From Myxococcales bacterium (lineage in GTDB: Bacteria > Myxococcota_A > Polyangia > Palsa-1104 > SHYY01): a DNA stretch of 64,000 nucleotides. Below, piece by piece: positions 9,526-48,920 of the stretch. Position 1 is the stretch's first letter. Every line of letters begins with the position of its first letter. The notes below the pieces were generated by a model, which was not told the origin of the DNA, did no database searches, and saw only the letters and a program-made list of their open reading frames with translations. Where the stretch lies: positions 20 to 64,019 of the forward strand of contig SHYY01000010.1 of the NCBI GenBank assembly GCA_009692555.1, given 5' to 3'. The position numbers were made by a program, and so were the translations under genes.

Positions 9526-9766
9526 GGGTACCCTTTCGACCTCGTGGCTAAGAGCCTGGTTCCCGAGCAGCCGCTCGTCGGTGGACGGGCGGGGGAGTGC
9601 CAAAGCTGCGAGAGCATATGAACGCTGCGGAAAGAATTCAAGGAAAAAGCCGCCCTTCGGCGGGCTAAGGCCAGGCCCGGCGCCTGCTCACGCCGCCGAC
9701 CGGTCTCCGTCGTGGTGCGCTCCGGGGCCGGTTTCGGCTCACGGTCATGCGTTCCTTTCGGAGTGC

Positions 9767-9794
9767 TTGACTTGGCTTTCGCCCCGTGTACGAT
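9767..9794 (+). promoter_or_regulatory. candidate sigma70-type promoter for the lipoprotein gene
   Basis: TTGACT (9767-9772), a 16-nt spacer, then TACGAT (9789-9794). AAGGAG lies 8 nt before ATG 9851. Confidence 0.35.
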
Positions 9795-9850
9795 GGGCGG
9801 GCTTTTTCCCGGCCCACTAGACCCCTGAGTGATTCCAAGGAGCTGATTCG

Positions 9851-10288
9851 ATGAGAGCCTTTCTGCCTGCGCTCCTGGCGGCCGCCCTTGCCGCGGTCGG
9901 CTGCACCGACAACGGCGTCGGGCGCAAGTGCATCAATCCGTCGGACGCGGGGATCCAGGGCACGGCCGTCGCGTCGCCCGCCCTCGAGTGCCCGACCCGC
10001 CTGTGCCTGCTCCAGGGCGAGATCGGCGGCGCGATCACGCGCTCCACATGCACCGCGGAGTGCCAGACCGACGAGGACTGCCAGAACGCGGTCAGCGGCA
10101 GCGCGAAGGAGCAGCTGTGCAACGGCGGCTTCGTGTGCGCCGTGTCGGCGGTGGCGGGGTCCTTCAAGTGCAAGAAGTTTTGCGTGTGCAAGGAAGACCT
10201 GAGGTGCGGCTTCAACTCGGATCTCGACGGGGGAGTGATCACGCCCTCGTCCTGTCCGAATCCGAGCCCGACGCCCAGCTGCCAGTAG
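9851..10288 (+). CDS. Cys-rich lipoprotein
   Basis: 145 aa. Lipobox LAAVGC after a signal peptide, 14 further Cys residues, and a good SD sequence. Confidence 0.7.
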   Translation: MRAFLPALLAAALAAVGCTDNGVGRKCINPSDAGIQGTAVASPALECPTRLCLLQGEIGGAITRSTCTAECQTDEDCQNAVSGSAKEQLCNGGFVCAVSAVAGSFKCKKFCVCKEDLRCGFNSDLDGGVITPSSCPNPSPTPSCQ

Positions 10289-10310
10289 GGGCCTCCCACC
10301 CTCACCCCGG

Positions 10311-13176: not shown

Positions 13177-13434
13177 TCAGGGCTGCGCTGCAGCCGCCTT
13201 GCGGGAAACCTTGATCAGCTCGCCGACCGTCGCCGAGGGCTGCGCGCCGACCGACAGCCAGTGCTGGAGGCGCGGCTCGTCGAAGCGGATCTGGGCGGGC
13301 TCGGCGAGCGGATCGTAGATCCCGATGTGCTCGATGAAGCGCCCGTCGCGCGGCGAGCGGGAGTCGGTCGCCACGACGCGATAGAAGGGGGTCTTCTTGC
13401 CGCCCATGCGAGAGAGTCGGATATGAACTGCCAT
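13177..13434 (-). CDS. rpsP: 30S ribosomal protein S16
   Basis: 85 aa. [40 protein letters not shown] is a canonical S16 sequence. Confidence 0.93.
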
Positions 13435-33768: not shown

Positions 33769-36567
33769 ATGACGGCCAGAACGATGACAGCGACGGTGAC
33801 GATGGCCCTGGCGATCGGCCTCTTCCCCCTGCCCGCGCGTGCGGAGACCCCCAAAGCCGCACCACCCGCCGCCAAGGCGACCGCGCCGGCGCCCACCAAG
33901 GTGGTGACCGTCGAAGGGATCACCGAATACCGCCTCGACAACGGGCTCCGCGTCCTGCTCTTCCCCGACGCCACCAAGCCGACCGTCACCGTCAACGTCA
34001 CCTACTTCGTCGGCTCGCGGCACGAGGGCTACGGCGAGTCGGGGATGGCCCACCTCCTCGAGCACCTGCTGTTCAAGGGCACCGCCACCCGCGACAACAT
34101 CCTCGGCCTCCTCCAGGCGCGCGGCGCGATGGCCAACGGCACCACCGACTACGATCGCACCAACTACTACGAGGTGCTCCCGGCGATCCCCGGCAACCTC
34201 GAGTTCGCGCTCGAGCTGGAGGCCGACCGGATGCTCGGCAGCCGCATCGCCAAGGTCGACCTCGACAAGGAGTTCACCGTCGTGCGCAACGAGTTCGAGA
34301 TGGGCGAGAACCAGCCCGATCAGGTGCTCGAGGAGCGGATGCTCTCCACGGCGTTCCTCTGGCACAACTACGGCAAATCGCCGATCGGATCGCGGGCCGA
34401 TATCGAGCGCGTGCCGATCGAGGCGCTGAAGGCGTTCTACCAGCGCTACTACCAGCCCGACAACGCCATGCTGGTGATCGCCGGAAAGGTCGATCCCGCC
34501 GCCGCGCTGGCGCTGGTGCAGAAGAACTTCGGCGGGCTGCCTCGCCCGTCGCGCAAGCTCGTCCCCACCTACACCGTCGAGCCGGTCCAGGACGGCGAGC
34601 GCTCGGTGACCCTGCGGCGGACCGGCGACGTCGCGGTGATCGGCGTCGCCTACCACGCGCTGCCCGGCTCGCACGAGGACTTCGTCGCCGAGCGCGCGCT
34701 GGTGGACGCTCTGGTGGCGAAGCCGTCGGGGCGGCTCTACAAGGCGCTGGTCGAGAAGGGCCTCGCCGCCGAGGTGCATGGCGACGCCTACCCGCTCACC
34801 GATCCCGGGTTCATCGACCTCTTCGCCTCGGTGCGGACCGGACAGTCGGTGGAGAAGGCCCAGGCCGCGCTGGTTCGCACCATCGAGGAGCTCGGCGCCG
34901 CCACCGGTCCGGGCGCGCTCACCGACGAGGACGTCAAGCGCTTCCAGGCCAAGGCGCTGAAGGGATGGGAGCTGGCGATGACCCGCAGCGATCGGATCGG
35001 CGTCGAGCTCAGCGAGTACGCGGCGCAGGGCGACTGGCGGCTCCTGTTCGTCTACCGCGATCGCTTGAAGCAGCTCGATCTGGCGCGCATGCGCCGGGTG
35101 GCCGGGCAGTTCCTGAAGCCGACCAACCGCACGCTCGGGCAGTTCCTGCCCACCAAGAGCCCCGATCGCGCACCGCTCCCGGTGCCGGTCGACGTGGCCG
35201 CGCTGGTGAAGGGCTACGTCGGGCAGGCCGACCTGGCGCAGGGCGAGGAGTTCGCCGCCACCCTCGACAACATCGAGAAACGCACCGAGACGACTGCGCT
35301 CCCGAACGGGATGAAGCTCGCGCTCCTCTCGAAAAAAACCCGCGGCGGCTCGGTCAAGCTGGTGCTCCAGCTTCACTTCGGCAGCGAGAAGGATCTCGCG
35401 GGCAAGCTCGGGGCGGCGGGGCAGGTGCGCGCGATGCTCGTCCGCGGGACGCGCAAGCACACCTACCAGCAGATCAAGGACTCGATGGATCGCCTGAAGA
35501 TGGAGATCCAGGGCGGCGACGACGGCCCCGGATCGGGCAGCCCCGACGCAGCGGCGCTGTCGGTGACCACCGTGCGTGAGCATCTCCCCGAGGTGATCGC
35601 GCTCCTCGGCGAGCTGACCTTGGAGCCGATCTTCCCGAAGGATCAGTTCGAGATCCTGCGCAAGGAGGGGCTCGCCGGCCTCGAGAAGCAGCTCCAGAAC
35701 CCGCAGATGCGCGCCTTCATCGCGCTCCAGCGGAAGGCCAATCCCTACCCGAAGGACAACGTCCGCTACGTCCCCACCGTCGAGGAGCGGATCGATCGCC
35801 TGAAGGCGGTCAAGGCCCCCGAGATCGCCGCGTTCCACAAGGCGTTCTGGGGCGGCAACCACGCCGAGCTGGCGGTGGTCGGCGACTTCGACGCCGGAGA
35901 GGTCAAGGCGGCCGCCACCAAGGCGTTCGGCGCGTGGAAAAGCCTGAAGCCCTACCAGCGCATCGCGTCGACGTTCCAGGCCGGCCTCCCGGGCGGCGAG
36001 GAGACGATCCAGACCGACGACAAGGAGATGGCGATGATCGTCGTCGGGAACGCGCTCGACCTGAAGGACGACGACGCCGACTACCCGGCGGCGCGGATCG
36101 GCAACTACGTGCTCGGCGGGGGCTTCAAGTCACGCCTGGTCGACCGCCTGCGGCAGAAGGAGGGGCTCTCCTACGGCGCCTTCTCCGGAATCAGCGCCGA
36201 CGCCCGCGATCGCTTCGGCTTCTTCTACGCAGGCGCGATCTGCGCCCCGCAGAACGCCGACAAGGCGATGGCGGCGATGCTCGAGGAGATCGACCGCCTG
36301 CGGAAGGATGGAGTTCCGGCGCCCGAGCTGGAGGAGGCCAAGAAGGGCTACCTCCTGTCATTCGACAATCGCCTGGCGCAGGACGAGTACGTGGCGGGGC
36401 AGCTCGCGAGCAACCTCCACCTCGATCGCACCTTCGACTACCACCGCAAGACCAACGCACGGATCCGCTCCATGACCCCGCAGGAGCTCGCTCCGGTCCT
36501 CGCCAAGGTCCTCGCTCCCGGGTGCCTGGTGAAGGTCAAGGCGGGGAACCTGAAGCCGGCGAAGTGA
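33769..36567 (+). CDS. secreted M16-family (pitrilysin/insulinase) zinc peptidase, double-module
   Basis: Start at ATG 33769 (MTARTMTATVTMALAIGLFPLPARA, signal peptide), giving 932 aa. HLLEHLLFKG (HxxEH) in the first half and a second M16-like half. Confidence 0.88.
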   Translation: MTARTMTATVTMALAIGLFPLPARAETPKAAPPAAKATAPAPTKVVTVEGITEYRLDNGLRVLLFPDATKPTVTVNVTYFVGSRHEGYGESGMAHLLEHLLFKGTATRDNILGLLQARGAMANGTTDYDRTNYYEVLPAIPGNLEFALELEADRMLGSRIAKVDLDKEFTVVRNEFEMGENQPDQVLEERMLSTAFLWHNYGKSPIGSRADIERVPIEALKAFYQRYYQPDNAMLVIAGKVDPAAALALVQKNFGGLPRPSRKLVPTYTVEPVQDGERSVTLRRTGDVAVIGVAYHALPGSHEDFVAERALVDALVAKPSGRLYKALVEKGLAAEVHGDAYPLTDPGFIDLFASVRTGQSVEKAQAALVRTIEELGAATGPGALTDEDVKRFQAKALKGWELAMTRSDRIGVELSEYAAQGDWRLLFVYRDRLKQLDLARMRRVAGQFLKPTNRTLGQFLPTKSPDRAPLPVPVDVAALVKGYVGQADLAQGEEFAATLDNIEKRTETTALPNGMKLALLSKKTRGGSVKLVLQLHFGSEKDLAGKLGAAGQVRAMLVRGTRKHTYQQIKDSMDRLKMEIQGGDDGPGSGSPDAAALSVTTVREHLPEVIALLGELTLEPIFPKDQFEILRKEGLAGLEKQLQNPQMRAFIALQRKANPYPKDNVRYVPTVEERIDRLKAVKAPEIAAFHKAFWGGNHAELAVVGDFDAGEVKAAATKAFGAWKSLKPYQRIASTFQAGLPGGEETIQTDDKEMAMIVVGNALDLKDDDADYPAARIGNYVLGGGFKSRLVDRLRQKEGLSYGAFSGISADARDRFGFFYAGAICAPQNADKAMAAMLEEIDRLRKDGVPAPELEEAKKGYLLSFDNRLAQDEYVAGQLASNLHLDRTFDYHRKTNARIRSMTPQELAPVLAKVLAPGCLVKVKAGNLKPAK

Positions 36568-36568
36568 G

Positions 36569-37042
36569 CTAGCGGGTCCAGGGGCCGGAGCGACCGCCGC
36601 TCTTGGCCTCGAGCTGGACGTCGACGATCCGCATCCCTCGATCGATCGCCTTGCACATGTCGTAGACCGTCAGCGCCGCCACCGTCACCGCGGTCAGCGC
36701 CTCCATCTCCACGCCGGTGCGATCATGGGCCTGCACGGTCGCGCGGATCGCGACGCGCGAGTTCGCCTCGTCGACCGTGAACGCGACGTCGACTCCGGTG
36801 ATCCGCAGCGGGTGGCAGAGGGGGATCAGCTCGGCGGTGCGCTTCAGCCCCTGGATCGCCGCGACGCGCGCGATGCCGAGCACGTCGCCCTTGCCGATCG
36901 TGCCTGCGGCGACCCGCTGAAGCGTCTCGCGGCTCATTTCAACAGCGCCCGAGGCGATCGCCGCACGATCGCTCTCCGGCTTGCCACCGACGTCGACCAT
37001 GCGCGCCGCGCCCTGCTCGTCGAAGTGGGTGAAATCGGCCAC
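36569..37042 (-). CDS. moaC: cyclic pyranopterin monophosphate synthase
   Basis: 157 aa. HFDEQGAARMVDVGGK...GDVLGIARVAAIQGLKRTAELIPLCHPL...MEALTAVTVAALTVYDMCKA is a canonical MoaC sequence. Confidence 0.93.
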   Translation of the reverse strand: MADFTHFDEQGAARMVDVGGKPESDRAAIASGAVEMSRETLQRVAAGTIGKGDVLGIARVAAIQGLKRTAELIPLCHPLRITGVDVAFTVDEANSRVAIRATVQAHDRTGVEMEALTAVTVAALTVYDMCKAIDRGMRIVDVQLEAKSGGRSGPWTR

Positions 37043-37052
37043 AGGGTGCCCG

Positions 37053-37631
37053 CTACGAGGCCGCGCGGGCGAGCACGTAGTACTGGCCGATCGGCGTGCC
37101 GAGCCGGGTCGCCGCGCCGATCACCACGTCCTTCGAGACGCGGCGGTTGTAGTCGTGCATGTCGCGGTAGACGAAGAACGAGATGCCCGAGCGGTTCGAG
37201 CGCGGCGCTGGCCAGCCCGGCGGACCCGACGGTGGGACCCGGGTGTAGTCGAAAAGGACCTCGTTCGGGCGCTCGCTCATCACCTCGCAGGTGAAGTAGC
37301 CCGGCCCGGTGGCGAAGGAGGTCGAGCCGACGTTGATCCCCACCACCGCGCCGGCGCGCCGGACAAAGTGCTTCTCGAAGTGCGTGAAGGCGGGCAGCGA
37401 GTTCTTCCCGCAAAACCGCACCGGCTGGTCGTCGGGCGCGGCCACCGGCACGAAGTCCTCGAGGCCCAGCCGCGGCGCGGGCGCGGAGACCTCCCACAGC
37501 TTCGCCAGCTGCGACTTCGAGAGGGCGCGACACTCGACGACGCGCTGCTCGCTTGCCAGCGCATCGAGGTGCGCCTCGATTGTTGTCAGGGTGACATCGG
37601 GGGTGTCGAGGAGGTTTGCCAGCTGCGCCAT
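37053..37631 (-). CDS. hypothetical protein (co-directional with moaC)
   Basis: ATG 37631 gives 192 aa (MAQLANLLDTPDVTL...) with ordinary composition. The longer ORF extension is Arg/Pro-rich. I recognise no motif with confidence. Confidence 0.55.
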   Translation of the reverse strand: MAQLANLLDTPDVTLTTIEAHLDALASEQRVVECRALSKSQLAKLWEVSAPAPRLGLEDFVPVAAPDDQPVRFCGKNSLPAFTHFEKHFVRRAGAVVGINVGSTSFATGPGYFTCEVMSERPNEVLFDYTRVPPSGPPGWPAPRSNRSGISFFVYRDMHDYNRRVSKDVVIGAATRLGTPIGQYYVLARAAS

Positions 37632-38026
37632 GGACGGGAGCATACCCGACCTTGGACCGCCCTGCCGGATGAGCCTGATCGACCCGAGCGATGTCGAGCC
37701 TGACCTCGATGCGAGGTGGAATTTGCCAGCGGCCGGAGGTTGCCCGTACCATCCCGGCGACGATGGCGGCGTGACAGTCGACAAAGTGCCTGGAGGTCCG
37801 TCTCGCGACGGGCGGGGCGCCGCTCGACCTCCAGACCGCGACCGGGGCCTCCTGGCAGCACGCCCCCGGCCCGCCCCCCGAGGAGCTGAAGACCCCGGCG
37901 CTGTGGAGCCGGATCGACGCGCGCTGGCCGGACCGCCGGGCGATCCTGCATGAGGCCGGCGCGCACCTGGGGCGCTGGCTCTACGGGGAGCGCACCGAGG
38001 CATTCCTCGTCGAGCAGGCGCGCGCG

Positions 38027-39664
38027 GTGGGGGACGCGGGGCCGGCGCGGCGGGTGGATCTGCGGGTGCCGAAGGAGCTCGCCGAGTGGCCGTGGGAGCT
38101 GGCCACCCTGGAGAAGCTCGGGCCCCCGGCGGTCCACCCGAAGCTCACCGTGGTGCGGGTCAGCGAGCTCGGCAGCCCGTCGCTGACGCCGCCGGCCCAG
38201 CTGGTGATCGACCTGATCGGGGTGCACCACGACGACCCGCACCCGTGGGAGCCGCTCAAGACGCGGCAGGAGATCGAGCGGATCCGCCAGGAGATCGAGG
38301 CGGCAGGCAAGCGCGGCCGCTACGCCGTCACCGTCGACGCGCGGGGCGGCTGGGATGCGCTGGTGCAGCGCTACGAGGAGACCGGACCTCCCCACCTCTT
38401 CCACTTCGCCGGGCACGGGTTCGACGGCGGGCGCGGCCTGGTGTTTGCCGGCGAAGACGGCGGGCCCGAGGAGATCACCGCCGAGCAGGTGGCGATGGTC
38501 CTCCGCCAGTCCGTCCGCGGGCGCCAGACCCGGCTGGCGTTCCTCAATGCGTGCTCCTCGTCAGCGACGGGAAAGCCGCGGCCCTACCAGCCGTTCGGCG
38601 CGCTCGGGGCGATGCTGATCCAGCACGGCGTCCCGATGGTGATCGGCCTGCAGACGGCCCTCGACGACAGCGAAGCGCAGAGCCTCGCCGCGGCGTTCTA
38701 CCAGGGGGTCGCCAACGGCGACTCGGTGGACTGCGCGATCCAGCGCGCGCGGAGGGATCTCTACCTCGACGGGGGCGGCAGCGTGTCGTGGGCCTTCGTC
38801 CACCTCACGGTCTCGGGGACGCCGTCGCCGCTGTGGCGACAGCCGGGCTACACCGCCGCGGGAGCGCCCTCGGCTTCGCTGTGGTCGTTCGCCCACCGCG
38901 AGCAGCGCCAGCAGCTCGATCTCTACCTCGGGCGGCGCGACCCGCTGGTGGTGGTGATCGGCGGCGAGGTGCATGCCGGCCATCGCTACGTCGCCGAGCG
39001 GCTGCGCTTCGATCTCGGGCGCGCGGGCAGCTCGCTCTACTACCCGGTGGCGGTGATGCGCTGGTTCAGCCCGGGCGAGAAGCAGCTCTCGCGCACCCTG
39101 CTCGCCGGCGGGATCGCTCGCGCCCTCGATCTCGACGACGAGGGGACGCGGGAGGGGCTGGAGAAGCGCATCGCGCGGAAGATCGCCGACTGCTGCGAGG
39201 AGGGGAAGGTGCTGGTGATCGACCTCGAGGAGCTGCTCCAGCCAGCGGACCCGGTGGAGGCCGACGCGGTGGTGGAGCTGGTGCAGGAGCTGTGGACCAG
39301 TTTGATGAACCTCGCCCGTCGCGGCGATCGGCTGCCGGTGTTCCTGCTGCTCTCGATCGCCTGGCCGCAGGAGCTGGCGCCGAGCGACCGCCGCGCCGCG
39401 CGGGCCCGGGAGAACCGGCAGAAGATCCAGGCGACGGTGGAGCGGCTGCGCGGGAAGCCGCGGCTGGAGGGGCGGGTGCGGGTGGAGGTGCTCAAGGAGC
39501 TGCGGCCGATCGAGGAGCCGGAAGTGGCGGACTTTCTCGAGCAGGTGCTGGAGATCGACCCCGACGCGGCGGAGGCGCAGGCGCGCAGCATCGTCGACGT
39601 CGGTGACAACGAGACCATCCTCGCGCGCATGACCAAGGTGCTCGAGGAGTGGGAGGAGGGCTGA
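38027..39664 (+). CDS. CHAT-domain caspase-like protease with C-terminal inactive P-loop-like region
   Basis: 545 aa from the first canonical start (GTG 38027). Motifs are LAEWPWELA, catalytic His in HLFHFAGHG (38414-38416) and catalytic Cys in AFLNACSS (38552-38554). Protein-like coding signal continues upstream in frame to 37775, so the true start is probably earlier (see findings). Confidence 0.85.
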   Translation: MGDAGPARRVDLRVPKELAEWPWELATLEKLGPPAVHPKLTVVRVSELGSPSLTPPAQLVIDLIGVHHDDPHPWEPLKTRQEIERIRQEIEAAGKRGRYAVTVDARGGWDALVQRYEETGPPHLFHFAGHGFDGGRGLVFAGEDGGPEEITAEQVAMVLRQSVRGRQTRLAFLNACSSSATGKPRPYQPFGALGAMLIQHGVPMVIGLQTALDDSEAQSLAAAFYQGVANGDSVDCAIQRARRDLYLDGGGSVSWAFVHLTVSGTPSPLWRQPGYTAAGAPSASLWSFAHREQRQQLDLYLGRRDPLVVVIGGEVHAGHRYVAERLRFDLGRAGSSLYYPVAVMRWFSPGEKQLSRTLLAGGIARALDLDDEGTREGLEKRIARKIADCCEEGKVLVIDLEELLQPADPVEADAVVELVQELWTSLMNLARRGDRLPVFLLLSIAWPQELAPSDRRAARARENRQKIQATVERLRGKPRLEGRVRVEVLKELRPIEEPEVADFLEQVLEIDPDAAEAQARSIVDVGDNETILARMTKVLEEWEEG

Positions 39665-40581
39665 TGCCCGGACCAGGCGACTTCGACATCTACCGCGGCG
39701 ACGGGCAGTTCCGCCCCGAGGCGCACCGCCAGCTCCCCGAGACCCCGGCGCTGTTCGAGGAGCGGGGGGCCTACCTTCCCGATCGCGACCTGGTCGAGGC
39801 GGTGAACATCGCGCTGTGCGTGGGGAGGCCGCTCCTGCTCACCGGCGAGCCGGGCTGCGGCAAGACGCGCCTCGCCTGGAGCCTGGCGACCGAGCTGGGT
39901 CTCGACGCGCCGCTGCAGTTCTTCACCCGCTCCACCTCGCGCGCGCAGGACCTGCTCTACACCTTCGACGCGGTGCAGCGCTTCCACGACATCCAGATGA
40001 AGAGCGCGCGCGCCGACGATCCGCACAACTACGTGCAGTTCGAGGCGCTCGGCCGGGCGATCGTCGAGGGGAAGCGGCGGGTGGTGCTGATCGACGAGAT
40101 CGACAAGGCCCCGCGCGACTTCCCGAACGACCTGCTGAACGAGATCGACCGGATGTCCTTCGAGGTGCGCGAGCTCACCGGCGACGATCGCGTGCGCAGC
40201 GCCAAGGTGCGGCCGATCGTGGTGATCACCTCCAACAGCGAGCGCCAGTTGCCGCTGCCGTTCCTGCGGCGCTGCGTGTTCCACTACATCGGCTTTCCGG
40301 AGCGGGACAAGCTGATCCGGATCGTTGAGGAGCGGCTCTCGGGCGACTCCCTCGACGGGGATCTGATCAAGGCGGCGGTCGACAAGTTCCTGGCCGTGCG
40401 AAAGATCAAGGGGCTGACCAAGAAGCCAGCGACGGGGGAGCTGCTCACCTGGGTGCATGCGCTGCAGGTGCGCGGCGTGGCCGCCCTGGCGCTGCGCGAA
40501 TCGCCCCAGGCAGCCGTGCCCCTCTGGCAGGCCCTCCTGAAGGACCGAGACGACCTCCGCCGTCTCCAGGAAGCGACCTGA
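39664..40581 (+). CDS. MoxR-type AAA+ ATPase
   Basis: 305 aa. ATG 39664 overlaps the CHAT stop (TGATG), with GGGAGGAGGG upstream. Walker A is LLLTGEPGCGKT (Lys codon 39862-39864) and Walker B is VVLIDEIDKA. ITSN...LPLPFLRRC provides sensor/Arg-finger-like motifs. Confidence 0.88.
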   Translation: MPGPGDFDIYRGDGQFRPEAHRQLPETPALFEERGAYLPDRDLVEAVNIALCVGRPLLLTGEPGCGKTRLAWSLATELGLDAPLQFFTRSTSRAQDLLYTFDAVQRFHDIQMKSARADDPHNYVQFEALGRAIVEGKRRVVLIDEIDKAPRDFPNDLLNEIDRMSFEVRELTGDDRVRSAKVRPIVVITSNSERQLPLPFLRRCVFHYIGFPERDKLIRIVEERLSGDSLDGDLIKAAVDKFLAVRKIKGLTKKPATGELLTWVHALQVRGVAALALRESPQAAVPLWQALLKDRDDLRRLQEAT

Positions 40582-40586
40582 GGCGG

Positions 40587-40940
40587 GTACCTCGACGCAG
40601 AGATTTCGACGGATTCGGCCGCCGCCGCATCCCCGTCCGCGTCGTTGCTCCTCAGTCACTTGCACCCGGTAAGGGCCCGCGAATGGGCAAGTCGATCGAT
40701 GATCGCGATCCGAGGCGCCCGGATGGCGAGGCGCGACGACGGAGAATACTCTCTGTATTCGACCGACGAGCTTCCCCCCAAGACTACAGAAGGGGGGCAA
40801 GCCCCCCGAAGCCAGCCGGGATGCATCGGCCGCGAGGGCGATCGAGTTGTCCGTTCGCGGGCCCTAGGCTCCTTCGTCGCGCCTCGCGGACGGCGCGCGG
40901 CAGCACCCTCGGTCCTGTCAAAACCTCTGCGTCGAGGTAC
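40587..40940. repeat. 354-bp insert-like segment bounded by a perfect 16-bp (24-bp imperfect) inverted repeat
   Basis: GTACCTCGACGCAGAG at 40587-40602 and its exact reverse complement at 40925-40940. The repeat extends to 24 bp with 2 mismatches (40587-40610 / 40917-40940). It fills almost the whole MoxR-to-vWA intergenic gap. Confidence 0.8.
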
Positions 40941-40958
40941 TCGTGAGAGGCCGGTTGA

Positions 40959-43900
40959 ATGAGCCGCGCTGATCGGAAGGCCAGCGGAAGGGGTCCGCTC
41001 GCCGACCTGCTGGTAGGGCTGAGGCTCCGCGGGATGACGGTGGGGCCCGACGACGCGGCGCGGGTGGTGGCGGTGTTCCGTCACGCGGCCGGGTGGTCGC
41101 ATGCGCGGCGGGTGCGGGCGCTGAAGGCGCTGCTCGGGCGCAACGACGACGAGCGGCGACTGATTGATCAGCTCTCGCCGTTCCTGTTCGTGGAGGCGCA
41201 CCGGCGGGAGGAGGGGCAGGCGGACGACGGGGGAGGCGCAGCGATGGGGGAGGCGGAGGGAGCACTCGCGAGCCGCGCCGGGACGCGCACGACGGGGGCG
41301 CAGGTCGGCGATCGGAGCGATGGAAGTTCAGGATCGAGGAGGGCTCCCTGGTCGCTGATCGTGCTCGGGTGCGCGCTGGCCGTGGCTGTGGCCGTGCTGG
41401 CGCTGGAGATTCCGTGGTCTCGGCCGTGGCCACCCGCCTCGGGTGACGGAGGCGTCGTCGATCTCGCACCGCTCGAGGACCTGTTTCGGCCGGCCGACGA
41501 CGGTGGCCTGCCGGACCTTCTGGATGGCGGCGCGCCGGCGATCGCCGAGGGCGGGTCGGGCCCCCCTCCCCTCCCGGTCTGTCAGACCGCCTTGCCGCTG
41601 CCGCCGCGGCGGTGGCCGTTCCTGCTCTTCGGCGGGACCGGCGTGCTGCCGGTGATCGCCCTGGCACTCCGTCGTCGCCGCTTTGCGCGCCAGCAGCGCA
41701 ACATCGACGCCCTCGCCCGTTCCGAGGGGCCGCGCACCTGGCGGCTGGAGATCCCCGCGGAACAGGCGCCCGATCCGCTCGACGCGACGGCGGTGCGCGA
41801 GGCGGCCTTCCAGCTCACCGCGCCATCGGCCGACGTGGTGGCCCCGTGGCTCGATCCCACCGGCACGGTGCAGGCGACCGCGCGGCGGGCCGGCCAGCTG
41901 GTGCTCCGCTTTGCCTCGCAGCGCGAGCATCGACCGCTGCTCTTCGTCGAGGACGTGGGGGTCTCGATGGCGCGGTGGCCGGATCATGGCCGCCAGATCG
42001 TGGAGGCGATCCGGCGCCAGGGCGGCGAGGTGATCCACTGCTTCTTCGACGGCGCGCCGGCGCTGACCGCCCGCCAGCGCGACCTCGCCGGCCGGCTCTC
42101 GCTCGAGCAGCTGCTCGCCGACGAGGGCGCACCGGTGGTGGTGCTGCTGGGCGACGCGGCGGGCCTGGAGCGGAGCGCCGTCGACAGCGCCACCTGGACC
42201 GCCGCGCTCGGCAACGCGCTGTGGCTGCACCCCCGGCCGGCCGAGCTGTGGGGTCCGGGCGCGCGCGCCGTCGCCGCCTGCCTGCAGGTGGTGCCTGTGA
42301 GCGAGGAGGGGCTGAGGCGCCTCGGCACCCCGCGACCCGATGGACTGGGGGACCTGCCCCGTCGCTGGACGGCCCCCCGGCCGGCGGGCAGCGACCCGCT
42401 CTCGTGCCTCGAAGCGTGGCGTGGGGCGGTCGGCGACGACGCCTTCTTCTGGCTCGCCGCCGGGGCGGTGCTCGATCGGATCGGCGGCCTGACAGCGCGG
42501 GCGTGGTGGGCGCTCCGCAGCAACGGGATCGCGCCGGCCCCCTGGCATCTCGTCGAGCGGGTGTGGGAGCTGCGCGGCCTGCGCGTCGCCAGCGACGGCA
42601 CGGTGGCTCTCCCGGGAAATCTCCGCGAGGCGCTGATCGAGGCGCTCGGGCGCGAGCGGCCGGACCTGCGCGCGCAGGTGGTGGCCTGGGCGAAGTCGCT
42701 GATCGCGGTGGACCTCGGGCGTCTGCCGGCGGACAGTCCGGCGCGGGTGGCGGCCCGGGCGGGGCAGGCGCGGCTGGCGCTGGTGGATCCGGCGCAGCGC
42801 GGCGAGGCCCGCCGTCTGGCGCAAGCGCTGGCGAACGATGGCTACGGCAACCTGCTGGCAGGGGCGGCCAGCGACGAGGAGCGGGGCGAGTGGCAGGTCG
42901 ATCTTCGACGGGCCGCGGGGCTGCGGCGGTGGCAGATCGGCGTCGCCGCGCTCGGGGCGGTGGCGATCCTCGCGGCGCTGCCGTTCCTTGCCAACCCGAC
43001 GCTGTGGACGCGGATCGTGCCGCCGAAACCGGACTTCCAGGTGCTCTCCTCCTCGCGCGTCTGGAACGGCAGCGCGATCTACCCGGTGTCGCCTGACGCC
43101 GCGCTGGTCTTCTGCGATCGCCGCCAGCTGGCGCGCAAGGTGTACGCCCGGGCCGGGAACGACGTCGTCCTCCTGGACGCCGCGGGCGACCCGGCGGTGT
43201 GGACACTCCCGGCGGACTCCCCGCTCTTCCCCGGCGTGAGCGTCGCGCAGTACGCCGACCTCTACCTCGGCTACGAGCAGCGCCCGACCGGCGGGCCGTG
43301 GAAGCTGAACGTGTTCGACGTGGGCGTCGCGGTGCTGAGGGCCAGCGCGACGCCACGGGACGCGGCGCCGGGAGTGCCACCGGGCACCTTCGTGGCGCTC
43401 ACCTGGGAGGTCCCCGCGCGCAACCTGCTCGAAAAAGCGCGCAAGCCGCCTCCGAAGTGGGACATCCTCCGCGACGGAAAGCAGATCGGGCGCAACATCA
43501 TCGACGGAACGCTGTTCTGGGTGGATGCTCCGCAGGGCGCCGGCCCCTGGCGCTACCAGGTGACCGCGGTGGCGGCCGAAGGACGACCCTACCGGAGCAA
43601 CGAGGTGCTGGTGAACGCGCCACTCGTGCCCATTCCCGTGGACAGGAACGTCGGGTGGCTGCTGCAGCCCGCCCTCGAAAAGCGACGCGGGTACGTCCTC
43701 ACCCTCGACGGCGCCGAGGAGCGCAGGAAGCGCATCGAGCTCTTGCCCGGCAATCACGCCTTCGGGTGGTCGCGGCCAGACGTGACCTGCCGCCGGCCGT
43801 GGCGCGACGAGGTGGTCATTGAGCGCGGCAAGGAGAGCAAGCTCCAGGTCCCGACCGACGAATACTTCCTCGCGGCCTGCCAGCCGGTGCGGGCCGGCGA

Positions 43901-45530
43901 TTGCCCGGGTGGCAAGGTGCGCTGCGGCGACCTGTGCGTCTCCAGCGACAACCCGCTCCACGCCGGCGGCTGCTTCAAAGTGGTGCCCGAGGTCTCCAAG
44001 GCGGCCGCCATGACCGATCCGCTGGAGATCGGCCTGCCAGGCGATGGCGTGGGGGGCGCGCTCTATCGACTCTACTATTCCTGGGACACCAACCGGAGCC
44101 ACGTGACCACCCACGCGATCGAGCGGAAGGTGCGCGGCAGCAGTGCCGGGGGGCCTCCACTCGACCTCGCAGGGCCAGAAGCGGCGGCGGCGGTGGAGCG
44201 CGGCTGGTCCGACGCCGGCAGGAGGAGCTTCATCACCCACCTTGCCCTGGGGTGCAACAGCGACGGGAGGCTGCTGACCAGTGGCCAGAAGCTGACCTGC
44301 CGCAAGGGCGCGGCGCCGCAGATCGAGACGTGGAATGGAGGAAACGTGCCGGGCGAGGTGCAGGCAGGCTCCGTGGGGCGACGGTGGACCGCCTACTGCG
44401 CGAGCCTGGCGCCGAGAGACGTGGCCGCCGAGATCGTCGCAGCCCGCCGCTTGATGAGGTCCCTGCAGTTCGACGAGGCGCTCTATCACCTCAAGGCAGC
44501 CACGCGGCTTGACCCCGATCCCCGGTCGGCGCAGGAGGCGATCGGCCTGATGATCGACATCGGGGGCGCCCGCGTCGAGGGTGGGCAGTTCGCCGAGGCC
44601 GCCGTGGCGTACCAGATCGCCGAGGGGACGATCCGGCAGCAGTACGACCGCAAGAACTCGACGCCCGAGATGCGGCGCATGCAGACGACGGCGCTCTTCG
44701 CGCTGGGCAATCTGTATCAGAAGCTCGGCCAGATTCCGGAGGCGCGCGTCGCATTCCTCCAGGCGGCCGAGGGGTATCGCCTCCTCCGCGCGCCGACCGA
44801 GAGCGCCGTGGCGCTGACGCTCCTGGCGGAGCTCGATGACCGCGCCGGCGAAGCGGGCAATGCCAGCCAGCACCGCAACGACGCCATCGCGCTCTATAAG
44901 AGCCTGGGAAATCGCAGCGAGATCGAGCGGTTGCAGGCTCTCAATGCCCGCCAGGGTCCGGCGCCGTGCGCGGGCGGCGAGACGCGCTGCGGGGACTTCT
45001 GCGTCCATCTCGACCGCGACCCGTTTCACTACAAGGAATGCTTCACCATCGCGCCGAGCCTCACCGAGAAGAGCGCGCGCGGGTACAACCCGCCGCCGTG
45101 GTTCGAATTCGAATTTGATGGAGTGCGGCGCCGCCGATTCGAGCAGGCCGCCTACTACCAGCTCCGATATCGCTGGTCCAACGACCGACTCCGCATCGAG
45201 GTGGGGGACTACGGCAACCGTCGCTTGTTTGCCGAATCCCTCGAATACGGCCAATTGCGAGCCCGCATCCATGGGATGGGAAAGCTGCGCACCTTCACCG
45301 ACTATGCGATCTTCTGCCTCCCCGGTGGTGGCGTCGCCGACGACCACGCCACGCGCTACCGGCACGTCTACCGCGAGACCGCCCGCGGGGCGACCTGGAT
45401 GACCGACGGCGACTGGCAGCCCCGCCAGACGAAGGAGCTGGGCGACGCGGCGCGCGACGCCTGGCCCACCGAATCACTGGTAAAAGAGTGGACTACCAAG
45501 TGTAAACGCGAGGCGTCGGCGAAGCCCTGA
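40959..45530 (+). CDS. giant three-pass membrane protein: CoxE-type N-domain, vWA-like domain, then extracytoplasmic beta-rich, Cys-rich and TPR region
   Basis: 1523 aa.
- aa 12-80: LADLLVGLRLRGMTVGPDD...LIDQLSPFLF resembles the N-terminal helical region of CoxE-type vWA proteins.
- Hydrophobic helices at aa 130-151, 219-237 and 658-678.
- aa 295-450: LDPTGTVQATARRAG...LLFVEDVGVSM...FFDG resembles a vWA domain with a partly degenerate MIDAS.
- aa 1155-1330: TPR-like.
- 16 Cys residues after the third helix. Confidence 0.85.
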   Translation: MSRADRKASGRGPLADLLVGLRLRGMTVGPDDAARVVAVFRHAAGWSHARRVRALKALLGRNDDERRLIDQLSPFLFVEAHRREEGQADDGGGAAMGEAEGALASRAGTRTTGAQVGDRSDGSSGSRRAPWSLIVLGCALAVAVAVLALEIPWSRPWPPASGDGGVVDLAPLEDLFRPADDGGLPDLLDGGAPAIAEGGSGPPPLPVCQTALPLPPRRWPFLLFGGTGVLPVIALALRRRRFARQQRNIDALARSEGPRTWRLEIPAEQAPDPLDATAVREAAFQLTAPSADVVAPWLDPTGTVQATARRAGQLVLRFASQREHRPLLFVEDVGVSMARWPDHGRQIVEAIRRQGGEVIHCFFDGAPALTARQRDLAGRLSLEQLLADEGAPVVVLLGDAAGLERSAVDSATWTAALGNALWLHPRPAELWGPGARAVAACLQVVPVSEEGLRRLGTPRPDGLGDLPRRWTAPRPAGSDPLSCLEAWRGAVGDDAFFWLAAGAVLDRIGGLTARAWWALRSNGIAPAPWHLVERVWELRGLRVASDGTVALPGNLREALIEALGRERPDLRAQVVAWAKSLIAVDLGRLPADSPARVAARAGQARLALVDPAQRGEARRLAQALANDGYGNLLAGAASDEERGEWQVDLRRAAGLRRWQIGVAALGAVAILAALPFLANPTLWTRIVPPKPDFQVLSSSRVWNGSAIYPVSPDAALVFCDRRQLARKVYARAGNDVVLLDAAGDPAVWTLPADSPLFPGVSVAQYADLYLGYEQRPTGGPWKLNVFDVGVAVLRASATPRDAAPGVPPGTFVALTWEVPARNLLEKARKPPPKWDILRDGKQIGRNIIDGTLFWVDAPQGAGPWRYQVTAVAAEGRPYRSNEVLVNAPLVPIPVDRNVGWLLQPALEKRRGYVLTLDGAEERRKRIELLPGNHAFGWSRPDVTCRRPWRDEVVIERGKESKLQVPTDEYFLAACQPVRAGDCPGGKVRCGDLCVSSDNPLHAGGCFKVVPEVSKAAAMTDPLEIGLPGDGVGGALYRLYYSWDTNRSHVTTHAIERKVRGSSAGGPPLDLAGPEAAAAVERGWSDAGRRSFITHLALGCNSDGRLLTSGQKLTCRKGAAPQIETWNGGNVPGEVQAGSVGRRWTAYCASLAPRDVAAEIVAARRLMRSLQFDEALYHLKAATRLDPDPRSAQEAIGLMIDIGGARVEGGQFAEAAVAYQIAEGTIRQQYDRKNSTPEMRRMQTTALFALGNLYQKLGQIPEARVAFLQAAEGYRLLRAPTESAVALTLLAELDDRAGEAGNASQHRNDAIALYKSLGNRSEIERLQALNARQGPAPCAGGETRCGDFCVHLDRDPFHYKECFTIAPSLTEKSARGYNPPPWFEFEFDGVRRRRFEQAAYYQLRYRWSNDRLRIEVGDYGNRRLFAESLEYGQLRARIHGMGKLRTFTDYAIFCLPGGGVADDHATRYRHVYRETARGATWMTDGDWQPRQTKELGDAARDAWPTESLVKEWTTKCKREASAKP

Positions 45531-45546
45531 ACTGCCAAGGAGCATC

Positions 45547-46443
45547 ATGCCCAAAGTATTTCTCTCTCACGCCGGCTCCGATACCGCCAGTGCGCGCCAG
45601 GTGGCCGACCTCCTCGCGGAATCCAGCGTCGAGGCGATCCTCGACCGCGGCACAATCGGCCCCGGCGACAGCACGGCCACCTTCATGAACCAGGGGCTGG
45701 GGACTGCTGACTACTGCCTCCTCCTGTGGTCCGAGGCCGCCTCCACGCGGCCGTGGGTGACGATAGAATGGGAGGCGGCGCTCTATCGCTCGGGGCGCGA
45801 GGCGCGCGCATTCCTGGTCGTCGGGCGGCTGGAAAACCGCGAGGTACCGCCCCTCCTGGCGCCCCGGCTGTACGTCGATCTCTTCCCGGATCCGCGGCGC
45901 GGCATGGACGAGCTGCTCAAGCACTGGCACCTCGACCGGACCGCCGAGCGGCGCTCCGAGCATCCGGTGGGCGCCCCCGCCCTCGAGCCCACCGCCGACG
46001 CGGCCGGCGCCCCGCTCTACCTCAGCTCCGAATTGTTCGGCCTGACCATCCCGCTCCGCCTCTCCCTCGACGTGCCCGCGGGGGTGCATCTCGACCGCCT
46101 GATCAATGACCTGAAACTCCCCCTCCGCTTCGACCACCAGGGGCGCATCGGAATGACCTTCGAGTACGCACTCGCCCTCGCTGATCGTCCCCTCGTCCGC
46201 GGCCGCCCGCTGGCCGCCCAGAGCGTCCGCCCGGGGGACGTCCTGGAATTGCAAGTCCAGGTCACGCCCTTCGCCGCCGTGGCGCCCAGGGAAGGAGCCG
46301 CCCGCCCGCTGGTCTTCCGCGGCGGTGGCGGCGGCCAGCGGACCGGCGCGCACGCTCCCGACGACGCGCAGCAGGCCGCGCGCGAGGCCCTCCACGCGGC
46401 CCTGGCCACCGCCGGCCTCCTCGCAGCGCCCGGAAAGCCCTGA
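45547..46443 (+). CDS. TIR-domain protein with uncharacterised C-terminal domain
   Basis: 298 aa. AAGGAG lies 5 nt upstream of the start, and the gene starts 16 nt after the giant gene's stop. KVFLSHAGSD...YCLLLWSEAASTRPWVTIEWEAAL is a TIR signature. The candidate catalytic Glu codon is 45766-45768. Confidence 0.85.
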   Translation: MPKVFLSHAGSDTASARQVADLLAESSVEAILDRGTIGPGDSTATFMNQGLGTADYCLLLWSEAASTRPWVTIEWEAALYRSGREARAFLVVGRLENREVPPLLAPRLYVDLFPDPRRGMDELLKHWHLDRTAERRSEHPVGAPALEPTADAAGAPLYLSSELFGLTIPLRLSLDVPAGVHLDRLINDLKLPLRFDHQGRIGMTFEYALALADRPLVRGRPLAAQSVRPGDVLELQVQVTPFAAVAPREGAARPLVFRGGGGGQRTGAHAPDDAQQAAREALHAALATAGLLAAPGKP

Positions 46444-46491
46444 CCCATCGACCGCCCCTTCAAGATCGTTGTCGCCTGACCCTCCCCCCTA

Positions 46492-46524
46492 CCCTCTCCC
46501 GCAGGCGACGCAGGCGGGAGAGGG
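46492..46524. terminator. GC-rich hairpin after the TIR gene (REP-like, same stem motif as 10311-10334)
   Basis: CCCTCTCCCGC-aggcgacgcag-GCGGGAGAGGG, a perfect 11-bp stem 49 nt after the TIR stop. No clear U-tract. Confidence 0.35.
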
Positions 46525-46901
46525 GGGCGATCGAGGGACAATCTGGACCAGTTTGGTGACGCACTGGAGTGTCGATCCTCCCCGCGAGATCAATCCGGTC
46601 ACTCGCGCCTCCCTCCCCTCCCTCCCCCAAAAACAAGGGGTGTCCAGCCGTCCAATCGTTCCCCATCCGCCCTCCGGACCCCAAAACCAGGTGGGGGCGC
46701 AGTGTGCGCGGAAGGGGGTGTTGCGCAGCGCGCAGCGCTTCGGCCGGCCTGGGGGCCGAATGCAAGCGGAACATCAAGGCCCGACGTGCCGCGGGCCCCT
46801 GCGGCCCCGGCGAAACCGGCCGTCCCCCGGACGCGCACTCCACCGCGCCCCCACGCCTCCCGCCCCAAGAAAGAAGTGCAGAAGTGCTACCCTCCGCCCC
46901 C

Positions 46902-48920
46902 ATGGACCGCCCTTTCAAGCTCGTCTCGAACTACACCCCGCGCGGCGATCAACCCAAAGCCATCGCCGAGCTGGTCGCCGGCGTGCGCCGCGGCGACCAG
47001 CATCAGGTGCTCCTCGGCATCACCGGCAGCGGCAAGACCTACACCGCCGCCTGCGTGATCGAGGCGGTCCAGAAGCCGACCCTGATCATCGCCCACAACA
47101 AGACCCTCGCCGCCCAGCTCTGCTCCGAGTTTCGCGACCTCTTCCCCGAGAATGCCGTGCAGTACTTCGTCTCCTATTACGACTACTACCAGCCCGAGGC
47201 CTACGTCCCCTCGTCGGACACATTCATCGAAAAGGACTCCCAGATCAACGAAGAGATCGACCGCATGCGCCACGCCGCGACACGCTCGCTCCTCACCCGC
47301 CGCGACGTGATCGTCGTCGCCTCGGTGAGCTGCATCTACGGCATCGGCGATCCCGGCTACTACAAGGGAATGGTCCTCTGCCTCGACGTCGGGCAAACTG
47401 TCAAGCGCGACGCGGTATTGCGCCGCCTGGTCGACCTCCAGTACCAGCGCAACGACATGGATTTCCACCGCGGCACCTTTCGCGTCCGCGGCGACGTGGT
47501 CGATATCTTTCCCGCCGACGAGGACAAGCTGGCCTTTCGCGTGGAATGGTTCGGCGACGAGATCGATTCGATCGCTGAAGTCGACCCGATGCGCGGCAAG
47601 GTGCTGAGGAAGCGTACCGAGATGAGCGTCTTCGCCGCCTCGCACTACGTCACGCCCACCGACGCGCTGGTCAAGGCGATCGAGGCGATCAAGATCGAAT
47701 TGCGCGAGCGCCTCCAGGAACTGGGCGCGGCGATGAAGCTGGTCGAGAAGCAGCGCCTCGAGCAGCGCACGATGTTCGACCTCGAGATGCTCGATCAAAT
47801 GGGCCATTGCACCGGCATCGAGAACTATTCGCGCCACCTCGCCGGGCGCGCCGCCGGGGCACCGCCGTCGACGCTGATGGACTACTTCCCGAAGGATTAT
47901 CTCCTCCTGGTCGACGAATCGCACCAGACCGTTCCGCAGGTGTCGGCGATGTACAAGGGTGACCGCGCCCGCAAGGAGACGCTGGTCAATTACGGCTTTC
48001 GCCTGCCGTCGGCGCTCGATAATCGGCCGCTCAAGTTCGAGGAGTGGGAGGCCCACGTCGGGCAGGCGATCTACGTCTCGGCCACGCCGGGTGATTACGA
48101 ATTGCAGAAGGCCCAGGGGGTCGTCGTCGAGCAGGTGATCCGGCCGACCGGATTGCTCGATCCGGAGATCGAGGTGCGGCCGGTGAAGGATCAGGTCGAT
48201 GACCTGCTGGGCGAGATCCGCGACCGGGTGGAGCGAAAAGAGCGCGTCCTGGTGACGACGCTGACCAAGCGAATGGCCGAGGATCTGACCGAGTACTACG
48301 CCGAGCTGGGGGTGCGGGTGCGCTACCTCCACGCCGACGTCGACACCCTCGATCGCATCGAGATCCTGCGCGATCTCCGACGGGGGGAGTTCGATGTGCT
48401 GGTCGGGATCAATCTGCTCCGCGAGGGGCTCGATCTGCCCGAGGTGTCGCTGGTGGCGATCCTCGACGCCGACAAGGAGGGTTTCCTGCGCGCCGAGCGC
48501 TCGCTGATCCAGACCTGTGGCCGCGCCGCCCGCAACGTCCGCGGCAAGGTCATCATGTACGGCGACCGGATCACCCGCTCGATGAAGGCGGCGATCGATG
48601 TCACCGATGCGCGACGCGTGATCCAGGCCGCCTACAACAAGGCGCACAAGATCACCCCGAAGACCATCGTGCGGGCGATCCACGCCGATCTGCGCGGGAC
48701 CGTCGACAACGCCGACTACCACGATATTCCGGAGGTGGCGGCGATGGCGGCGGAGGACCGCCCGGACTACGATCTGCCATCGCTGAAGGAGCTTCCGGGG
48801 CGCATCGCGGCGCTGAAGCGCGAGATGCACGCCGCGGCCGAGGACCTGGAGTTCGAGAAGGCGGCGGCGATCCGCGACCGGATCAAGTCGCTCGAGGAGC
48901 TCGAGCTGCGGCTGCGGTGA
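46902..48920 (+). CDS. uvrB: excinuclease ABC subunit B
   Basis: 672 aa from ATG 46902. [21 protein letters not shown]...[12 protein letters not shown]...helicase motifs...C-terminal [11 protein letters not shown] (UVR domain). Confidence 0.96.

Follow-up and report, generated by a model that had tools for sequence, protein, structure and literature searches.

What kind of protein spans the membrane with a MoxR-partner-like core on one side and a very large, cysteine-rich region on the other? The question is raised by an open reading frame (ORF) at 40959 to 45530 on the forward strand of a 64-kb stretch of DNA from a Myxococcales metagenome-assembled genome (MAG), which we call the window. 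All coordinates below are positions in the window, and residue numbers refer to the 1,523-amino-acid (aa) product. The ORF starts with ATG and is the longest of its region. As an initial annotation, made from the sequence without database searches, had proposed, it is a real gene: its translation is identical to that of an NCBI protein from a Myxococcales MAG, and its GC content at third codon positions (GC3), 0.89, matches the codon bias of the neighboring genes. The NCBI entry is named only "tetratricopeptide repeat protein." In a Pfam search of the 1,523-aa protein, only TPR repeats scored above threshold, a match to VWA_CoxE being very weak, and PADLOC had no model covering the protein. 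We concluded, with high confidence, that the protein belongs, as a membrane-embedded vWA component, to an iSTAND-type MoxR-vWA ternary system, a kind of conflict system that would act in defense or programmed death. The finding amounts to an annotation correction, as the database name masks what would be the receptor subunit of a defense system.

The identity of the protein is decided by its operon, which the initial annotation had overlooked. The vWA gene is third in the order CHAT-iSTAND protease, MoxR AAA+ ATPase, vWA protein, and TIR protein, all on the forward strand. The first gene (37763 to 39664) encodes a CHAT (caspase-like) protease fused to an inactive STAND domain. The CHAT domain matches Pfam (E = 2.5e-18) and contains the HFAGHG and LNAC motifs; the Walker A sequence is degenerate (GGEVHAGHRY). 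The CHAT protein of the window itself had no match at E ≤ 1 to the Pfam iSTAND family, PF19995. Over its last 261 aa, it shares 45% identity (E = 2e-80) with the ortholog in a relative's locus, L005, and that ortholog matches PF19995 at E = 1.4e-8 (35.7 bits, against a cutoff of 24). We thus found an inactive-STAND component with an N-terminal effector by way of the L005 ortholog and the CHAT domain. The second gene (39649 to 40581) encodes a MoxR-like AAA+ ATPase (Pfam AAA_5, E = 1.7e-10; NCBIfam MadB_ATPase, E = 3e-19) with intact Walker A (GEPGCGKT) and Walker B (VVLIDEID) motifs. The fourth gene (45547 to 46443) starts 17 nucleotides (nt) past the vWA stop codon and encodes a 298-aa TIR-domain protein (Pfam TIR_2, E = 9.9e-22; PADLOC TIR-type matches), whose C-terminal half of about 170 aa is without a family assignment. 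This gene is not in the homolog loci examined, and its product is probably an accessory effector specific to this locus.

This arrangement matches the iSTAND ternary system described by Kaur et al. (2020, eLife, PMC7159879), which has the same core of a caspase-like peptidase joined to an inactive STAND domain, a MoxR ATPase, and a vWA protein. In that description, the iSTAND protein carries caspase-like or TIR domains, and the vWA component has a CoxE-like four-helix N-terminal domain. N-terminal transmembrane (TM) segments occur in about 28% of iSTAND ternary systems, and the variable C-terminal domains, of which FGE-sulfatase (FGS) is the commonest, include PEGA, OmpA, PASTA, and Sel1 repeats that typically stand behind a TM segment. 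FGS and TIR domains are common in these systems, and the systems are enriched in multicellular proteobacteria (as then classified); our MAG is from the Myxococcales. The assignment of the window protein to this system is made because the adjacent MoxR gene, the CHAT-iSTAND partner, the conserved three-gene order, and the variable C termini all match the description. Unlike the published members, the protein has an outer region consisting of a duplicated six-cysteine module around TPRs, with none of the listed domains; a glycine at the first serine of its metal ion-dependent adhesion site (MIDAS); and a helical domain of about 170 aa, specific to its family, ahead of the last TM segment. Its locus also differs in having the extra TIR gene and a palindromic insertion.

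To define the family, we ran an exhaustive HMMER search with a profile of the conserved core, counting cluster representatives. We found 931 representatives at E < 1e-3, 172 at E < 1e-10, and 43 at E < 1e-30. Two other approaches gave less. The word-indexed homolog search is weak on a protein this rich in Ala and Arg and returned three, two, and zero matches, and scans of genomes and metagenomes yielded few loci because the back-translated patterns are degenerate. The conserved part comprises aa 1 to 82 and aa 221 to 700, and everything past the third TM helix (TM3) is variable. In 34 members, the C termini include FGE-sulfatase (10 members), TPR, PKD, Calx-beta, OmpA, cytochrome c, TIG, Peptidase_M74, and CHAT domains, and TM3 stands ahead of the variable domains in 26 of 30 members. 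Six independent loci (L001 [= L003], L002 [= L010], L004, L005, L007, and L008 [= L009]) share the gene order CHAT-iSTAND, MoxR, vWA, with the protease gene truncated by a contig end in one of them; the sequence of a seventh locus, L006, breaks off inside its MoxR gene. Across loci, the CHAT proteins (31 to 48% identity) and the MoxR proteins (51 to 70%) are orthologous from end to end, and a MoxR gene lies upstream of every family member examined.

The initial annotation had called the protein a CoxE-type vWA partner of MoxR. The Pfam score of the single protein says little on this point: VWA_CoxE (PF05762) matched aa 295 to 355 with 12.0 bits (E = 0.14), below the gathering cutoff of 26.4 bits. 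Against the family consensus, VWA_CoxE scored 23.3 bits (E = 4.9e-5; same cutoff of 26.4) and was the only family matched. It was found at E < 1e-3 in 7 of 34 members (best E = 5.9e-6), with matches that span only profile positions 13 to 87 of 222. We modeled aa 244 to 657 with AlphaFold2 from a 27-sequence family alignment and obtained a predicted local distance difference test (pLDDT) score of 91.4 and a predicted template modeling (pTM) score of 0.87. Read from its secondary structure, aa 327 to 455 of the model run b1-a-b2-b3(hairpin)-a-b4-a-b5-a-b6-a, with six strands in the vWA order. The sequence LLFVEDVGVSM at aa 327 to 337 had been noted before as a DxGxS version of the MIDAS motif, and we found the same: the site reads D332-V-G-V-S336 (41952 to 41966), without the complete D-x-S-x-S. 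The second metal aspartate is D399, in LLGD, followed by a WLHPRPxELW motif. In the model, D332 (in FVED) closes strand 1 and D399 closes strand 4. Consistently with this, two aspartates that close core strands 1 and 4 define the vWA metal site (Kaur et al., PMC7159879). D332 is kept in at least 90% of 34 aligned members, and 28 of 33 have an Asp aligned with D399.

Fold searches with this model gave the same picture. Among the BFVD matches, the top-ranked named ones were VWFA-domain or CobT-like proteins (Foldseek probability, 0.84 to 0.99; E = 0.027 to 0.07), and the highest-probability match near the top in the PDB was NorD of the NorQD complex (9qhf_G; probability, 0.82; E = 0.043). Neither database gave a match at E ≤ 0.001, and searching PDB sequences with a profile of the core alignment gave no relevant match. 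These profile and fold matches are below threshold and are consistent with a vWA-like fold with both metal-binding aspartates in a predicted cytoplasmic domain at aa 250 to 455 (41706 to 42323). The similarity is credible because it comes from the family matches and the structure model and not from the single-protein Pfam score. The earlier call thus stands as far as the family profile, the model, and the adjacent MoxR gene go, but it does not reach the formal thresholds of the profile and fold searches. As a side observation, Foldseek also returned weak matches to a DtxR/IdeR regulator (E of about 0.6 to 1.2), not aligned to a particular region of the query.

A helical region had been seen after the vWA core, and the model has it at aa 480 to 645 (42396 to 42893), between the vWA domain and TM3. 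It is a predicted cytoplasmic helical domain with a small beta-hairpin and is modeled with a pLDDT of about 94 to 98 over most of its length. This domain is conserved in the 43 closest representatives and matched no known family in Pfam or in the PDB sequence-profile search. It would be specific to the family.

A NorD neighbor and a VWA_CoxE match raise the alternative that the protein is a housekeeping chaperone. Adjacent MoxR AAA+ genes and vWA partners with a helical N-terminal domain are also found in NorQ/NorD, CoxD/CoxE, and RavA/ViaA, and MoxR-vWA pairs are classically maturation factors. According to this model, the pair would mature or insert a cofactor into a membrane or periplasmic complex, and the outer region would serve as an assembly scaffold. 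NorD, the best PDB structural neighbor, belongs to a metal-insertion chaperone, and VWA_CoxE is the one Pfam family that the consensus of our family matched. The vWA proteins of those systems are soluble and serve enzyme maturation; in contrast, the vWA domain here lies between TM helices and is tied to a caspase-like protease and a TIR protein, with no client enzyme gene in the operon. The flanking genes (moaC, an M16 peptidase gene, and uvrB) are all housekeeping genes and are not conserved across loci, whereas the partner that recurs is a caspase-like protease with an inactive STAND scaffold. TIR proteins and the diversity-generating retroelements (DGRs) of relatives, described below, are hallmarks of conflict systems. 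We consider a housekeeping role very improbable. The mechanism could still be shared: finger-in-pore remodeling has been shown for NorQD (PMC13036017) and is plausible for this pair.

We then asked how the protein sits in the membrane. The initial annotation had described three hydrophobic helices flanked by RRRRFARQQR and RRAAGLRRWQ. A Kyte-Doolittle scan with a 19-residue window agreed, giving exactly three strongly hydrophobic segments, at aa 133 to 151 (mean, 2.76), 219 to 237 (1.85), and 660 to 678 (2.40). TM1, a 67-aa outside loop with a conserved P-V-C, and TM2 (together 41355 to 41669) are assigned from hydropathy, family conservation, and charge bias. TM3 (42936 to 42992) has four Arg before it and two basic residues after it. 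RRRRFARQQR follows directly after TM2, and RRAAGLRRWQ stands directly before TM3. We found all three helices at the same places in 26 of 30 close family members with an intact N terminus, and because of this we regard the TM helices as a family trait. Soluble relatives exist as well. Two of them, P0004 and P0015, have an acidic low-complexity linker in place of TM1, the loop, and TM2 and have no third helix. This fits either a gain of TM helices on a soluble scaffold or their loss from one. Both soluble relatives have an FGE-sulfatase domain directly after the helical domain, and P0004 has the full DxSxS MIDAS. The membrane-spanning vWA protein with an outer region had been called unusual. That does not hold: the architecture was already described in PMC7159879, by comparative genomics only, and most relatives share the three helices. 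The protein is a further member and not a new architecture.

Which side each part faces is suggested by three features of the family. First, the Lys and Arg counts in the 15 residues before and after each helix, summed over the 26 three-helix members, are 94 and 37 for TM1, 47 and 128 for TM2, and 90 and 46 for TM3. Second, the cysteine content past TM3 is 2.1%, versus 0.68% in the core, or about threefold. Third, the domains that relatives have past TM3 (OmpA, cytochrome c, Peptidase_M74, Calx-beta, PKD, TIG, and FGE-sulfatase) are of extracytoplasmic type. In addition, one relative (P0003) has about 480 aa of PKD repeats inside the loop between TM1 and TM2. MoxR, the partner of the vWA domain, is cytoplasmic. 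Because charge bias, cysteine enrichment, and the periplasm-type domains of relatives agree, a topology with the N-terminal, vWA, and helical domains inside and the TM1-TM2 loop and the C-terminal two-thirds of the protein outside is well supported by sequence. The same topology had been predicted from the single protein, and the family data now support it.

The N-terminal domain (aa 12 to 80; 40992 to 41198) is predicted to be cytoplasmic and to consist of four helices, as judged from the model, family conservation, and the CoxE-like description of Kaur et al. An AlphaFold run of aa 1 to 700 with four sequences placed helices at aa 13 to 23, 30 to 40, 48 to 59, and 63 to 76 with pLDDT scores of 64 to 85; the pLDDT of the whole model was 55.8, and a fold search from it was uninformative. 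The four-helix domain is conserved across the family. Its relationship to CoxE rests on the literature (PMC7159879).

We next consider the predicted extracytoplasmic region, the 845 aa from 679 to 1523 (42993 to 45527). A count placed 16 of the 21 cysteines in aa 681 to 1523, as had been claimed for the part after the third helix, and 5 before it. The region begins with a juxtamembrane beta-rich part, followed by an FN3-like unit at about aa 800 to 890. Ig/FN3-like and PEGA-like stretches had been proposed in this region. A stretch at aa 831 to 887 does match a unit that is repeated in P0003 (E = 8e-7 and 2e-5), so the Ig/FN3-like call has weak support as a repeated unit, but no named family was matched: Pfam gave no PEGA, fn3, or Ig family at E ≤ 1, and the PEGA-like call was not recovered. 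The rest consists of a TPR block (aa 1155 to 1330; 44421 to 44948) between two copies of a six-cysteine module, A (aa 974 to 1150; 43878 to 44408) and B (aa 1337 to 1523; 44967 to 45527). The TPR block, which had also been read from the sequence, was detected by TPR_2 above the Pfam cutoff (30.2 bits versus 27), with matches over aa 1160 to 1315. The modules, of about 180 aa each, are an internal duplication: BLASTP aligned them at E = 3e-12, their global alignment scored 10 standard deviations above shuffles (z = 10), and all six cysteines align. Their pattern is CxGGxxRCGDxCV ... CF ... C ... WTxxC, and the motif CxGGxxRCGDxCV weakly matches the NCBIfam family C_rich_MXAN6577 ("MXAN_6577-like cysteine-rich protein"; E = 6.6e-4). 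Searched against PDB sequences, the outer region had no match.

What does the outer region do? Relatives bear on this question. In two of them (L001 and L005), genes for bAvd and a reverse transcriptase adjoin the vWA gene, and the vWA protein ends in an FGE-sulfatase/C-type-lectin (CLec) domain that is the target of a DGR. The DGR-related spans are at 9605 to 10293 and 9709 to 11801 of L005 and at 13205 to 14430 of L001. The vWA-FGS gene of L005 contains a 119-nt variable repeat at its 3′ end, and all 12 mismatches between it and the template repeat fall on template adenines. Such DGR-diversified vWA-CLec (FGS) "antigen sensor" targets were reported in MoxR ternary systems by Dore et al. (PNAS 2024, PMC10907252), who proposed a model of vWA fusions as sensors and predicted that some targets have a periplasmic CLec domain by way of TM segments. 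Our relatives are like those targets both in their domains and in their adenine-specific repeat differences. The window protein is unlike them: it has no FGS or CLec domain, and tblastn found no reverse transcriptase or Avd in the 64-kb window, so there is no DGR here and the outer domain is not hypermutated. The targeted hypermutation in relatives argues that the outer domain binds ligands, because it hits a domain that is placed outside the membrane.

Kaur et al. read the C-terminal domains differently, as effectors or cell wall anchors (PMC7159879). According to their model, iSTAND or MoxR would sense invasion in the cytoplasm, CHAT would cleave the vWA protein, and the Cys-rich/TPR region, an effector or anchor associated with the envelope, would be set free or switched on to damage it. 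PEGA, OmpA, PASTA, and Sel1 are called peptidoglycan-associating effector domains behind a TM segment in that work. Consistently with this, OmpA and Peptidase_M74 (a murein endopeptidase) are found past TM3 in relatives, and the outer region in the window has TPR/Sel1-like repeats. However, DGR hypermutation of an outer FGE-sulfatase/C-type-lectin domain is typical of ligand-binding receptors and not of enzymes or anchors, a cytoplasmic protease could not reach an extracytoplasmic domain, and nothing evident about the TPR and Cys-rich modules points to toxic activity. The sensor reading of Dore et al. fits better than the effector reading because the DGR hypermutates the outer domain, and we consider the effector or anchor model unlikely.

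We favor, with moderate confidence in the chain as a whole, a model in which the protein is an outside-in sensor that is coupled via MoxR to the CHAT protease. The outer region would bind an extracytoplasmic cue, such as the surface of a phage, predator, or epibiont or a product of envelope damage. Via the helices, the change would reach the vWA and helical domains in the cytoplasm. A MoxR hexamer would grip the vWA domain, as NorQ does NorD, and use ATP to remodel the complex. This would free or activate the caspase-like CHAT protease, which the inactive-STAND scaffold holds, and the adjacent TIR protein would act as a second effector. We infer the direction of the signal, with the outer region as sensor, as well as the MoxR-vWA contact and the activation of the protease.

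An experimental precedent comes from the Esr pathway of oral Actinobacteria, in which surface sensors and MoxR-vWA trigger defense against epibionts (bioRxiv 2026, PMC13622651). Esr likewise joins extracellular sensing modules and a conserved MoxR-vWA pair to a cytoplasmic defense response. The Esr sensor, however, is a surface filament of its own that carries a beta-propeller, and a kinase/FHA relay leading to Esx secretion forms the output. In our system, a single polypeptide would contain both sensor and vWA domain, and the output would be a CHAT protease and a TIR protein.

Several points weigh against the sensor model and the assignment on which it builds. A full-text literature search found no experimental study of any iSTAND system, and the authors who described the system did not read its C-terminal domains as sensors. 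The outer region is without a recognizable ligand-binding family, the DGR evidence comes from relatives, and the vWA matches fall short of formal thresholds. The change of the first MIDAS serine to glycine may weaken the binding of metal or peptide. D-x-S-x-S is present in about 18 of 32 members and Gly or Ala at the first Ser in about 12 of 32, so the change is common to about a third of the family.

Two further points concern this copy of the system. In the CHAT gene, the mechanically called ORF starts with GTG at 38027, and homology runs in frame upstream to an ATG at 37763. The added part (37763 to 38026) is a conserved N-terminal region of about 85 aa in homologs. A TGA at 37772 to 37774, codon 4, breaks this frame; it may have arisen by nonsense mutation or by misassembly, or be bypassed by reinitiation. 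The second point is an imperfect palindrome of 386 nt (40571 to 40956) that has three nested pairs of inverted repeats and takes up the spacer from the MoxR gene to the vWA gene. No such spacer exists in the four homolog loci with both genes called (L001, L002, L007, and L008/L009), where MoxR and vWA overlap. An RNA fold of the 398 nt at 40565 to 40962, which contain the palindrome, gave −217.7 kcal/mol, versus −173.7 ± 7.1 kcal/mol for shuffles (z = −6.2). The 3′ arm covers a Shine-Dalgarno-like GAGAGG ahead of the vWA start, and we found no second copy of the palindrome in the window. The palindrome is possibly a MITE-like insertion (MITE, miniature inverted-repeat transposable element), a structured leader, or a regulatory hairpin. 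The TGA and the palindrome could each be an assembly artifact, a regulatory feature, or a sign of decay.

Because of the in-frame TGA and the palindrome between the MoxR and vWA genes, this copy of the system may be impaired. Taken further, the locus would be an iSTAND-type system of which this copy is nonfunctional through a nonsense codon and an insertion, to which the glycine in the MIDAS could be added. Against this, the four ORFs are otherwise intact, with a strong codon bias (GC3 of 0.88 to 0.95), and MoxR and CHAT retain their catalytic motifs. Many family members share the Ser-to-Gly/Ala change, the TGA could be an error of MAG assembly or be bypassed, and a Shine-Dalgarno-like sequence still stands before the vWA start. 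We regard a decaying or silenced locus as quite unlikely.

MoxR-vWA ternary systems are widespread in multicellular bacteria and contain domains common to animal and plant immune and death pathways (caspase-like, TIR, and STAND). As one polypeptide is predicted to combine an external domain and a cytoplasmic vWA domain, the family offers a compact test case for outside-in signaling. Its assets are a supported inside/outside assignment, a high-confidence model of the core, and natural soluble and DGR-diversified relatives for comparison. A bolder extension, which we consider improbable, is that the family is a single-polypeptide "death-receptor-like" pathway. In such a pathway, an extracytoplasmic receptor domain (hypermutated by a DGR in some members, fixed and Cys-rich/TPR here) would act across the inner membrane, through an AAA+-remodeled vWA domain, on a caspase-like protease and a TIR NADase. 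The signal here would perhaps come from self, kin, or the envelope and not from a pathogen, and the system, if this were true, would be linked to the developmental death of cells in a multicellular bacterium.

Around the operon, Rfam gave no match in 36500 to 47000, and no intrinsic terminator-like sites were found in 36900 to 46700. The space between the divergent moaC gene and the CHAT-iSTAND gene (37043 to 37762) is unusually long for an intergenic region, with about 720 nt and no convincing ORF. Sigma70-like, promoter-like hexamers lie at 37723 to 37752, before the ATG at 37763.

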